A stretch of 36,627 bases of DNA from Candidatus Woesearchaeota archaeon (lineage in GTDB: Archaea > Nanobdellota > Nanobdellia > Pacearchaeales > GW2011-AR1): assembly GCA_964598515.1 (NCBI GenBank), contig CAZRBZ010000001.1, forward strand, positions 1-36,627, written 5' to 3'. Both the position numbers and the translations under genes were made by a program. The notes below the pieces were generated by a model. The model made no database searches. It was given only the letters and a program-made list of their open reading frames with translations, and was not told the DNA's origin. Shown here in pieces: positions 11,375 through 36,627 of the stretch; positions within the stretch are counted from its first letter, which is position 1, and the number at the start of each line of letters is the position of its first letter.

Positions 11375-11585
11375 ACTAGTTTATAGAAGAATTAGATTAT
11401 AAAGTTTTCTATTGTTGTAATTTATTAATGATTACAAATGGGGGTTTGAATTTCTCCTGAAATCAAAATCGATGAATTTTGACTTAAACCAGCGCAATCA
11501 CTTCTTGTGATAAAACTACTTGAATTTTTGAACTTTCAAATTTTGTTTCAGAATTAAAATTATTCTTCTAAAGAGGAATAAGATA

Positions 11586-11672
11586 TGCAAGGGACAGGAT
11601 TTGTGGGTCGTTCAAAGAACTCTCCGTAGCACAAAAGTTTAAACTTTGTGCTAAACCCAAGGTTTCGAACCT
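11586..11672 (-). pseudogene. tRNA-Leu 3' fragment: T-arm half AGGTTC, a ~64-nt hairpin-rich insert, then the last 17-18 nt of tRNA-Leu
   Basis: 11586-11603 is identical to 11682-11699 (CAAATCCTGTCCCTTGCA on the minus strand). AGGTTC at 11667-11672. The insert contains a stem of about 10 bp (TAGCACAAAG/CTTTTGTGCTA). Confidence 0.5.
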
Positions 11673-11681
11673 AAAAATAAA

Positions 11682-11764
11682 TGCAAGGGACAGGATTTGA
11701 ACCTGCGCAAGTATACACTACTGGAGCCTAAATCCAGCCCGTTTGACCACTCCGGCACCCCTGC
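11682..11764 (-). tRNA. tRNA-Leu (anticodon UAG), type II with long variable arm
   Basis: Hand fold: acceptor GCAGGGG/CCCTTGC plus discriminator A. Anticodon arm CTGGA-TTTAGGC-TCCAG. T-arm GCAGG-TTCAAAT-CCTGT. 83 nt. Confidence 0.9.
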
Positions 11765-11818
11765 ATTGTTTTGTGGTCAAATGGTTTACTGTTGAGTTAA
11801 AGTGACTGCGTCGACTTT

Positions 11819-11867
11819 GACTTGGTTGAACCTGAAAGGTGATGCCTGACCACTCCGGCATCCCCAC
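11819..11867 (-). pseudogene. tRNA-Leu-like 5' fragment (acceptor/D-arm plus T-arm remnant, no anticodon arm)
   Basis: GTGGGGATGCCGGAGTGGTCA shares 14/14 nt (TGCCGGAGTGGTCA) with the intact tRNA-Leu 103 nt downstream. It is followed by CAGGTTCAA (T-arm-like). No complementary 3' acceptor strand was found. Confidence 0.5.
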
Positions 11868-11895
11868 ATGTGATAATAAATGGAGAAATCTTGGG

Positions 11896-11903
11896 TATAA
11901 AAA
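11896..11903 (-). promoter_or_regulatory. TATA box (TTTTTATA on the minus strand) upstream of the tRNA-Leu locus
   Basis: Lies about 29 nt upstream of the 5' fragment at 11867. There is no comparable TATA directly upstream of the intact tRNA-Leu. Confidence 0.4.
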
Positions 11904-16460: not shown

Positions 16461-16468
16461 CTTTTAAA
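16461..16468 (+). promoter_or_regulatory. TATA box (TTTTAAAT) upstream of the tRNA-Arg locus
   Basis: Lies 23-30 nt upstream of 16491, the first base of the 5' tRNA-Arg fragment. No TATA lies directly upstream of the intact tRNA at 16602. Confidence 0.4.
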
Positions 16469-16490
16469 TCAAATAAAACAAATATTTACA

Positions 16491-16601
16491 TGCTTCGGTA
16501 ACTCAACTCGACACCACGCTCGGAGTTGATAAGTAGAGATTGTCCTTCGCGTAATCTCTCGGCCTGGATATCCATCCTTCGTTACCAATTCGTGAAGATT
16601 G
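16491..16601 (+). pseudogene. tRNA-Arg-like leader: 5' 14 nt + 56-nt insert + next 9 nt of the tRNA + degenerate remainder
   Basis: 16491-16504 (GCTTCGGTAACTCA) equals 16602-16615. 16561-16569 (GCCTGGATA) equals 16616-16624. The insert carries a 7-bp hairpin AGAGATT/AATCTCT. No T-arm or 3' acceptor strand is present. Confidence 0.45.
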
Positions 16602-16676
16602 TGCTTCGGTAACTCAGCCTGGATAGAGTGTCAGCCTTCTAAGCTGAAAGTCGCAGGTTCGAATCCTGTCCGGGGC
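16602..16676 (+). tRNA. tRNA-Arg (anticodon UCU)
   Basis: Hand fold: GCTTCGG/CCGGGGC acceptor plus A. D-arm ACTC/GAGT. Anticodon arm TCAGC-CTTCTAA-GCTGA. T-arm GCAGG-TTCGAAT-CCTGT. Followed by a T8 run. Confidence 0.9.
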
Positions 16677-16700
16677 ATATTTTTTTTGTAAAAAAGAGAT

Positions 16701-16727: not shown

Positions 16728-16739
16728 AACAATAAACTT

Positions 16740-16790
16740 AACCGATAAATTGGGCGCTCGTTCACACAGTGACTTCGCATAAACTATCTG
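16740..16790 (+). repeat. CCGATAAAT-family element (single copy related to the 51-bp tandem unit at 36522)
   Basis: About 75% identity to the unit at 36522 over roughly the first 40 nt. Hairpin TCAC-ACA-GTGA here versus CGAC-ACA-GTCG there (both stem changes are compensatory). Confidence 0.6.
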
Positions 16791-18578: not shown

Positions 18579-19253
18579 TTAAGGTTTAGTCCATTTAATC
18601 TCGTAATAGGTTATTTGGTTTTCTTCATCTACAATTGCTAGAAGTACGTTTTTGTTTGTTGAGTGTGCTACCCTATTTTTTGCTGCGAATTCATGCCATG
18701 TTGTTTTATTGTTTTCGTGATCTGTGAATATAATCCATTTTGAATGTTCTTTTCCTGGTTTTTTTCCTTTTTCATATGCTCTGAATTCTGCACCGAATTT
18801 TAATGCTGTTTTTATTACATATCCTTTAATTCTTAAATCTTTGAATACTGCATATTTTATTAGAAATTTTTTATCTGCTTTTGTAAATTTTTGGATTAGT
18901 TGATCAGCTGTTAGCAATTTATTGTTTTGATATATATCCATTTTTTCATTTTGAACTAAAAATAATCCTTCAGATAAGGTGTATTTTATTTTATCCTCAA
19001 TATGTTCTCCGAATGAAGATTGTTTGCAATAAGAATATGCTTGTTTTGAATTGGTTGTTAATGTGTTTCCTATTAAATGTGCGATGATTTCTTTTTTTGG
19101 GAATTTTTCTTCTTTTTTTTCTTTTGTGGTGGGCACTATTTTTTTGGGTGTTGAATTAGCTTTCTTTTTCACCGGTTTCTTTTTTGTTGATTTTTTAAAA
19201 GCCTTTTTTTTCTTTGTTTCTCTTTTTTGTTTACCAAATACAAATAGTGACAT
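18579..19253 (-). CDS. endA: tRNA-splicing endonuclease EndA with Lys-rich N-terminal extension
   Basis: The catalytic domain LRIKGYVIKTALKFGAEFRAYEKGKKPGKEHSKWIIF ... RVAHSTNKNVLLAIV matches the archaeal EndA signature. Confidence 0.9.
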   Translation of the reverse strand: MSLFVFGKQKRETKKKKAFKKSTKKKPVKKKANSTPKKIVPTTKEKKEEKFPKKEIIAHLIGNTLTTNSKQAYSYCKQSSFGEHIEDKIKYTLSEGLFLVQNEKMDIYQNNKLLTADQLIQKFTKADKKFLIKYAVFKDLRIKGYVIKTALKFGAEFRAYEKGKKPGKEHSKWIIFTDHENNKTTWHEFAAKNRVAHSTNKNVLLAIVDEENQITYYEIKWTKP

Positions 19254-32249: not shown

Positions 32250-32689
32250 GGTATTCTCGAAGGGTGAGCGTCACATTGTCGAGGGTGAATGTAAAAATTC
32301 GTGTCTTGAAAATCTGCGGTCAAGCCCACAACTTAAGTTGGGGGGTAGCAGATTTTAGCGAATTTGTGACTTTATTAAGAAGAATTTGTTAAAGTATTAT
32401 AGTAAGTATTAGTTTAGAAATAAGTACTTGTTTGAGGGGCGCAGTGGCGGGAAATATAGTAAGAAATCTGTTCAGAAGATTTTGGAGAGGTTCGGGGAAG
32501 AGGGTTGGAATTAAAATTACTAATCATATGCTTCGTCATTCTTATGCTACCCATTTGTTAGAAAATGGAACTGATTTGAGAATTATTCAGAAGCTTTTAG
32601 GACATTCGGATTTGAAAACTACTGAGATTTATACTTATGTTTCTAAGAAGGGATTGGAGGAGACTAGGAGTCCTTTGGATAATTTGTAA
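32250..32689 (+). pseudogene. tyrosine recombinase (Xer/phage-integrase family) pseudogene: N-terminally truncated, in-frame stops and a frameshift
   Basis: Frame 1 reads ...[54 protein letters not shown]. After a frameshift near 32495 it reads [46 protein letters not shown] (HxLRH, LGH and catalytic Tyr boxes). Confidence 0.75.
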
Positions 32690-36521: not shown

Positions 36522-36627
36522 ACCGATAAATCGGATGCTCGCCGACACAGTCGCTTCGCTTAATTCTGAAGAACCGATAAATCGGATGCTCGCCGACACA
36601 GTCGCTTCGCTTAATTCTGAAGAACCG
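36522..36627 (+). repeat. exact 51-bp tandem repeat, more than 2 copies, running off the window end
   Basis: ACCGATAAATCGGATGCTCGCCGACACAGTCGCTTCGCTTAATTCTGAAGA starts at 36522, 36573 and 36624. It begins 3 nt after the disA stop. Confidence 0.9.

Follow-up and report, generated by a model that had tools for sequence, protein, structure and literature searches.

Why should the sole native-type tRNA-Arg(UCU) gene that we found in an archaeal genome assembly be separated from its only promoter by 111 nt, which begin with a copy of the gene's own start? The gene lies in the window, i.e. the whole 36,627-nt stretch of DNA that was analysed, which is contig C1 of the genome under study, G000 (a metagenome-assembled genome, MAG, of 974 kb in 96 contigs, 82% complete, with a G+C content of 27.6% and genes for both TBP and splicing endonuclease EndA); other G-numbers stand for relatives' genomes and L-numbers for loci therein. 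The other Arg(TCT) gene of the assembly is unrelated in sequence and sits in a foreign-looking array of 27 tRNA genes only a few nt apart (G000:C11:8780-11582). This array has 41% G+C on a 29% G+C contig, its tRNAs (Arg(TCT), for example) are unlike those of the rest of the genome and it may have come from a virus or mobile element or be a contaminant of the bin.

At the native locus, TGCTTCGGTAACTCA, which covers the T at -1 and tRNA nt 1-14, forms a 15-nt direct repeat (16491-16505 and 16602-16616), and a 9-nt repeat, GCCTGGATA, continues with tRNA nt 15-21 (16562-16570 and 16617-16625); the two upstream pieces are separated by a 56-nt insert (16506-16561). For the 15-mer, the chance expectation within 300 nt is 9e-8, and both the 15-mer and the 9-mer occur just twice in the 974-kb genome, in each case at this locus (see the table). 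The 111 nt between promoter and tRNA are made up of a 96-nt element copy and a 15-nt duplicate of the tRNA start. A preliminary description of this DNA had reported the first 14 nt of the tRNA at 16491-16504, an insert at 16505-16560 and the next 9 nt at 16561-16569. The repeat is real and the lengths of 56 and 9 nt are right, but the repeat is 15 nt long and the coordinates of all three pieces were off by one. The hairpin AGAGATT/AATCTCT and the ACTC/GAGT pair that it described are present within 16535-16559 and 16506-16526, respectively. What it took for a degraded anticodon arm, in contrast, belongs to the element as its tail; the CTTCG motif found there is common to six of the eight distinct leaders compared, which precede Arg, Lys and Arg(CCT) tRNAs.

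Features of the tRNA-Arg(UCU) locus in window coordinates
Feature	Position	Strand	Basis
TATA-like promoter box CTTTTAAAT (CTTTTAAA at 16461-16468)	16461..16469	+	PWM match 31 nt upstream of 16492
Segment a, TGCTTCGGTAACTCA: dead copy of the T at -1 and tRNA nt 1-14, original promoter flank kept	16491..16505	+	identical to 16602-16616
Element core (E-core): box 1, AT-rich middle, box 2	16506..16562	+	box-2 pattern, family alignment, nhmmer profile
Box 1, ACTCGACACCACGCTCGG	16506-16523	+	within E-core
Box 2, TTCGCGTAATCTCTCGG	16546-16562	+	within E-core, exact pattern match
Hairpin AGAGATT/AATCTCT in the AT-rich middle	16535-16541/16553-16559	+	sequence
ACTC and GAGT	16506-16509, 16523-16526	+	sequence
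Segment b, GCCTGGATA (tRNA nt 15-21), then partial inverted copy b'	16562..16574	+	helix 2 of the leader consensus
Palindrome TGGATATCCA of b/b'	16565-16574	+	sequence
Element tail: CTTCG (16577-16581), GTTACC (16581-16586), GAAG	16575..16601	+	CTTCG recurs in other leaders
Intact tRNA-Arg(UCU)	16603..16677	+	Rfam 64 bits; ARAGORN calls tRNA-Arg(TCT) at 16602-16678
T-run TTTTTTTT, likely archaeal terminator of the tRNA transcript	16680..16687	+	sequence; role from general knowledge of archaeal termination

Judged by its sequence, the insert belongs, as a degenerate copy, to a conserved Pacearchaeota family of two-box repeats. These consist of box 1 (ACTCG..CGCTCGG), an AT-rich middle and box 2 (YTCGCGWAAT..CTCGG; pattern YTYGCGWAAWNNCTCGG) and measure about 52-64 nt in total; alignment gives the family consensus as box 1 ACTCGCGACCYCGCTCGG, ~28 AT-rich nt and box 2 YTCGCGAAATCGCTCGG, with the two boxes partly complementary over 8 bp. 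The box-2 pattern has 55 matches, spread over 38 genomes out of 401 from the same GTDB family (up to 7 copies per genome), compared to 2 for the reversed control pattern. In G000, box 2 is an exact match (16546-16562) and the nhmmer profile of the family picks up 16486-16584 (E = 2e-18), the single element copy that this genome holds. The composite pattern of box 1 and box 2 is found on 11 public contigs, 9 of them labelled Candidatus Pacearchaeota or 'archaeon' and 2 Woesearchaeota, and all 11 named carriers are Pacearchaeota-type MAGs. Full-text literature searches found no published description of such an element; what comes nearest are tRNA fragments derived from integrated elements and a model of intron gain via integration (PMC3293823; PMC9897764; PMC3218864).

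Copies of the element next to tRNA genes follow placement rules. In the 5' type, the order is promoter, a (tRNA -1 to 13/14), core, b, b', CTTCG tail and intact tRNA, where b stands for the next 8-9 tRNA nt (D-loop) and b' for an inverted copy of b. This arrangement occurs at Arg(TCT) in G000, G002, G230, G286 and G307, at Arg(CCT) in G008, at Lys(CTT) in G122 and G260 and, as two tandem units, at Ile(GAT) in G100. In seven of eight homologous leaders the 8-9 nt that follow the core match the host tRNA's own D-loop variant (GCC, GTC or GCT; ATA, TC or TTA), and the inverted copy that comes next tracks b. The 3' type has the same geometry in mirror image (intact 3' end, spacer, T-loop piece with palindrome, reverse-complemented core and the last 10-14 tRNA nt, with the T-run terminator coming after the fragment) and is found at Pro, Lys, Glu, Gly, Leu and Ile tRNAs. 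Usually the element stands 11-16 bp inside the duplicated tRNA terminus (in G000, a is 14-15 nt and b 9 nt long). About half of all copies are solo, i.e. without a duplicated 11-mer downstream. Elsewhere in Pacearchaeota, one antisense copy and the 5' end of an RNase P RNA gene overlap (L091; G218:C10:14036-14652), and one canonical tRNA-Trp intron harbours a box-2 copy (L038). As the duplicated segment varies between 10 and 16 nt and exceeds 60 nt, promoter included, in one case (L082), it does not resemble a target-site duplication of fixed length; nor does the element resemble a plain att scar.

Equally telling is how the elements relate to one another. That of G000 at Arg(TCT) is 68% identical to the G002 copy at Arg(TCT), 64% to the G008 copy at Arg(CCT), 61-63% to the Lys(CTT) leaders of G122 and G260 and just 49% to the G230 copy at Arg(TCT), while the latter and the Ile(GAT) copy of G100 share 77%. 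Since element similarity is independent of tRNA identity, we infer that the element has moved between tRNA genes, with a, b and b' matched to the host each time. With a single copy in G000, the case for mobility is drawn from the other genomes. The preliminary description had considered that the insert might behave as a mobile or intron-like unit; given this host-matched movement, we read it as a mobile or recombining module at the DNA level.

Presence and absence among relatives is in line with this reading. In G016, a promoter (AAAGAAACACTTTTAAAT...TTACA) which is the same as that of G000 directly abuts the tRNA with no leader in between, and in G007 and G020 the promoter likewise stands directly at the tRNA. 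By LeuRS identity to G000 (82, 81 and 78%) these three are the closest relatives, and none has the 111-nt block, where absence means not found in the genomes searched, all of them incomplete MAGs. As the closest relatives have the promoter directly before the tRNA, the block is dispensable. G002, whose LeuRS is 73% identical to that of G000, carries a homologous leader, G001 has the same layout with a diverged insert, and in G008 a homologous insert precedes a different tRNA, Arg(CCT), with an upstream fragment that equals that tRNA's own 5' end. A side observation from the LeuRS comparison is that the matches in G004, G009, G015 and G019 fall into 2-3 pieces on one contig, some with in-frame stops, which suggests a LeuRS split by an insertion (intein or intervening element) or by frameshifts in several species of the genus. 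Could the whole layout be an assembly artefact of a metagenome bin? As a MAG in 96 contigs, G000 does have scaffold gaps near other tRNA repeats; however, diverged homologous leaders recur in at least nine independent genomes, and since these include MAGs of other species, we regard the probability of an artefact as negligible.

A direct repeat of a tRNA terminus beside a reconstituted gene is the classic footprint of integration, as with SSV1 and its 44-bp repeat, and 5' fragments are also known (PMC3293823, discussion; PMC9897764). Hence, the locus might be the scar of an integrated virus or plasmid, whose tyrosine integrase acted at the D-loop region of the tRNA and duplicated the 5' block (attL/attR), and whose cargo was later deleted to leave an arm of ~96 nt. 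In keeping with this, many other G000 tRNAs have 17-20-nt repeats that reach from the T-loop to the 3' end, and the two direct boxes with their TCGCGA palindrome could be recombinase binding sites. Moreover, G000 has two tyrosine recombinases and one pseudogene (window 32261-32647; Pfam PF00589, 69.7 bits, one in-frame TAA), the latter immediately before the point where promoter and start of the next gene are duplicated. Nonetheless, we consider such a scar unlikely. The same core of roughly 55-65 nt recurs at many tRNAs and in many genomes with sharp ends, which random deletions would not produce, and with no remnant of cargo or integrase; in G000, the 96 nt between the direct repeats hold no ORF. 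In addition, the core interrupts the block of identity at nt 14/15, and solo copies exist away from tRNAs. Nor does the element occur on any IMG/VR contig: the 28 box-2 matches there are due to chance, none being accompanied by box 1, and 27 of them lie on contigs with 43-68% G+C and one on a contig with 28%. Mobilisation of the IS200/IS605 type was dismissed as well, G000 having no Y1 transposase and a single TnpB-like ORF on C93. Beyond syntenic housekeeping genes, no protein family recurs beside the element, so that between IMG/VR, the G000 genes and the element neighbours we found no transposase, integrase or viral carrier tied to it.

How, then, is the tRNA made? With a PWM built from 14 leaderless tRNA promoters of G000 (TTTWAA boxes, with the core starting 30-43 nt before the gene), the only box at a proper distance lies at 16461-16469, 31 nt before 16492, and none is present in 16470-16602. 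This bears out the earlier claim that the sole TATA box is placed for a start at the fragment. With no other promoter box in front of it, the intact tRNA would have to be transcribed with a leader of ~111 nt, and as the sole native-type tRNA-Arg(UCU) gene in the assembly it must be expressed. The long precursor proposed in the preliminary description thus gains support from promoter position as far as such a leader is concerned, but its intron-like variant with bulge-helix-bulge (BHB) motifs fails (see below). RNase P RNA is present in G000 (RF00373, two matches of 106.7 and 94.5 bits), by which a leaderless, RNase P-free mode of transcription as in Nanoarchaeum is ruled out; a search for the Rpp29 protein in this genome, which is 82% complete, gave no match. 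EndA (window 18579-19253) and an RNase Z-like protein are both encoded nearby. It may be added that the two RNase P RNA matches, both above the Rfam threshold, come from one bin (G000:C10:18820-19070 and C50:334-625) and that the last 40 nt of the one on C50 are repeated 175 nt downstream, a terminus duplication of the same kind as seen with the tRNAs.

If transcription starts at the fragment, as it probably does, the fragment might be a real exon 1 of an intron-containing or split gene, from which the splicing endonuclease would remove 16506-16616 (or 16506-16561 plus 16571-16625). Indeed, removal of 16506-16616 leaves the mature sequence exactly unchanged, EndA is encoded 2 kb away and the tRNA-Trp intron of L038 contains a box-2 copy. 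Yet the BHB motif, defined by two 3-nt bulges, a 4-bp central helix and cleavage after the second nucleotide of each bulge, does not form at the candidate junctions here: in strict geometry, one of four central pairs forms at 16505/16561 and two of four at 16505/16616, as opposed to four of four for the tRNA-Ile(UAU) intron of G000, on which the same rule was validated. EndA of G000 is a single 224-aa N+C unit, a type expected to need canonical motifs (literature summarised in PMC5829648). The introns called in G000 all sit at 37/38 or close to it, and the gene is contiguous and intact at 16603-16677; removal of the 56-nt insert alone would leave only nt 1-21. To our minds, splicing at this locus is therefore very improbable. 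As regards introns elsewhere, a 'tRNA-Stop(tta)' called by ARAGORN at G000:C9:18821-18939 is by eye a tRNA-Lys(UUU) with a 42-nt intron, and a 13-nt 5' self-fragment of it lies 112 nt upstream.

A further option is that the leader benefits its host and acts as RNA, either by controlling processing, folding or level of the tRNA or by yielding a small RNA after RNase P cleavage. There is shared structure to speak for it: the nine 5'-type leaders have two helices in common, box 1/box 2 (8 bp) and b/b', with 92% of cells paired, three pairs with compensatory change and a covariation score that was reached in none of 500 shuffles. Leaders can be aligned between species whose LeuRS are 73% identical, and an element ~68% identical between G000 and G002 at that distance, together with the compensatory pairs, could equally mean purifying selection for host function. 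On its own, the G000 leader is predicted to form a closed domain (-25.2 kcal/mol) with the tRNA left free, and in the subgroup of G230, G286 and G100 the pairing of the fragment with an antisense stretch inside the leader is stronger than in shuffles (z = -2.2 to -3.0). Several findings nonetheless make a host function improbable. The leader is missing in the three closest relatives and has no Rfam match at the gathering threshold or at E-values up to 1. In the shared helices, G.U (6 cells) and A.C mismatches (5 cells) are equally frequent. Homologous copies of the 3' type lie behind tRNA genes antisense to the tRNA transcript, and in nine out of ten of them the promoter score in the element's sense is at most 2.9 (one is promoter-like), compared with scores between 4.5 and 15.7 for the eight real 5' leaders that have a locus and a null probability of 0.02 for a score of at least 6. 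Equal G.U and A.C counts, antisense 3' copies and the lack of an own promoter point away from a strand-specific RNA function, and the mirror copies at tRNA 3' ends favour an origin at the level of DNA over a designed precursor.

For the whole G000 precursor, the fold z-score of -1.15 is not significant. Pairing between fragment and own leader is not above chance in six of nine leaders, G000 among them: here the leader duplex has -9.3 kcal/mol compared to -8.4 +/- 1.9 kcal/mol for shuffles, so the GTTACC noted earlier does exist, but its complementarity to GGTAAC in the mature 5' end is no greater than chance would give. A decoy fragment sequestered by the antisense stretch was set aside, as significance is confined to the subgroup of G230, G286 and G100 and is not reached in G000, and so was a C/D-box sRNA leader, CCAG-N-CUGA being present in G001 and G100 and the other leaders having CUUCG with no C box. 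What the energies do predict is that a precursor in which the fragment takes the 3' acceptor strand (-55.1 kcal/mol, the minimum-energy fold) is more stable than one with the true acceptor stem (-51.3 kcal/mol), by which the decoy could compete with the true 5' end. In such a model, the leader may be costly or a chaperoning fold may be needed.

Our preferred reading, which we regard as reasonably probable, is a selfish insertion at the DNA level, with the 111-nt leader and its removal by RNase P as a by-product. The element would have landed ~14 bp inside the 5' end of the tRNA gene, with the terminal 14-15 bp ending up on both sides of it; the outer copy would stay with the promoter as a dead fragment and the inner copy would keep the gene intact, with 8-9 further target bases (D-loop) and their inverted copy built into the element. 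Transcription from the sole promoter would start at the fragment and give a pre-tRNA with a ~111-nt leader, which RNase P would then remove by a cut at 16602/16603. Sequence comparison makes the repeat look like a small, as yet undescribed mobile element that enters tRNA genes at their ends and leaves them intact. Whether two-box elements are more than this, namely a new class of gene-free mobile modules which go into structured-RNA genes (tRNA, RNase P RNA) at a set, short distance from the gene end and rebuild this end by copying target into themselves (a, b, b'), is a thought we offer tentatively and with more doubt than conviction. We know of no transposase, integrase or casposase that accounts for a terminus-duplicating, target-templated mechanism of this kind.

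Ultra-small archaeal genomes are thought to be streamlined, yet partial self-copies and inserted modules accompany ~18 of the ~30 tRNA genes of G000 outside the C11 array. These copies lie 67-141 nt upstream or 43-206 nt downstream, and their spacers fall into several families, some common to different tRNAs. At tRNA-Leu(TAG) (window 11585-11903), a diverged copy of nt 1-22 stands 81 nt upstream and the last 19 nt are repeated 77 nt downstream; over 59 nt, its leader shares 90% identity with the one in front of tRNA-Leu(AAG) on C19. The preliminary description saw the same architecture here as at tRNA-Arg, which is correct for the self-fragments at both loci but not for the Leu leader, which comes from another spacer family with the motif CCAAGTCAAAGTCGACGCAGTCAC. 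A pseudo-copy of promoter plus nt 1-38 precedes tRNA-Gln(TTG) (G000:C8:4417-4714) and is broken after the anticodon loop by a 67-nt element, itself the reverse complement of a trailer element behind tRNA-Thr(TGT) and tRNA-Arg(CCT). Behind tRNA-Ile(GAT) (G000:C6:21950-22280) follow at least three tandem 77-nt units, each a 44-nt spacer plus tRNA nt 44-76, and at C48:5806-5950 tRNA-Thr(GGT) is followed by a homologous 43-nt spacer and a 3' copy. A ~52-nt repeat family (ACCGATAAATCGG..GCTCGCCGACACAGTCGCTTCGC; window 16739-16790 and 36522-36627, G000:C8:18602-18950) forms tandem arrays, with one copy standing alone right behind tRNA-Arg; in its core, the family is similar to the motif TCGACGCAGTCAC of tRNA-Leu and tRNA-Glu leaders.

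If a mobile unit does land in essential tRNA genes and repairs them as it inserts, this would be a previously undescribed safe-site strategy of selfish DNA, and archaeal tRNA leaders, trailers and fragments, possibly introns too, would arise from it. On the practical side, self-fragments confuse tRNA annotation and make several tRNAs of these organisms dependent on RNase P and RNase Z for the removal of 100-nt extensions.

Among known systems, the tRNA-linked repeats of E. coli rRNA/tRNA operons (the term as used in PMC8144298) are likewise short tRNA-end repeats beside the gene; going by their description, they differ in being bacterial, in repeating the 3' end behind the gene and in having no homologous core. 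For the BHB-type tRNA introns of Archaea and their transposition (Fujishima 2010, summarised in PMC4090602), the likeness lies in the module being at a fixed tRNA coordinate (14/15) and a related box lying inside a true tRNA-Trp intron of another Pacearchaeota genome. Unlike such introns, however, our module forms no bulge-helix-bulge, resides in a dead fragment rather than in the functional gene and has mirror copies that are antisense.

With MITEs and with REP/BIME sequences and their RAYTs, the two-box element shares being short, gene-free and hairpin-forming, the tandem units, a multi-copy nature (up to 7 copies) and a patchy distribution among close relatives (empty site in G007, G016 and G020). 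It differs from both in preferring the last 11-16 bp of structured-RNA genes and in a long, variable duplication that copies host sequence; moreover, no Y1/RAYT transposase was found in G000, and this genome has a single copy. Casposons insert at tRNA 3' ends with target duplications of 14-15 bp. While duplication length (~14-15 bp here) and location at a tRNA gene end are thus similar, the two-box element of 96 nt comes without Cas1 and without terminal inverted repeats of the casposon type.

In layout, the locus also resembles the attL/attR tRNA duplications left by archaeal integrases of the SSV and pNOB8 types (Sugahara et al. 2012, PMC3293823; van der Gulik et al. 2023, PMC9897764). Both have a copy of the tRNA terminus beside an intact gene, so that a direct repeat of the terminal block flanks the insert, in both the fragment keeps the outer flank, and in both some relatives have the insertion and others lack it. 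What sets the two-box element apart is its mere 96 nt with no integrase or cargo, the split of the duplicated block at nt 14/15 by the two-box core, a built-in inverted copy of the 8-9 target bases that come next and a core that recurs at many tRNAs as well as solo.
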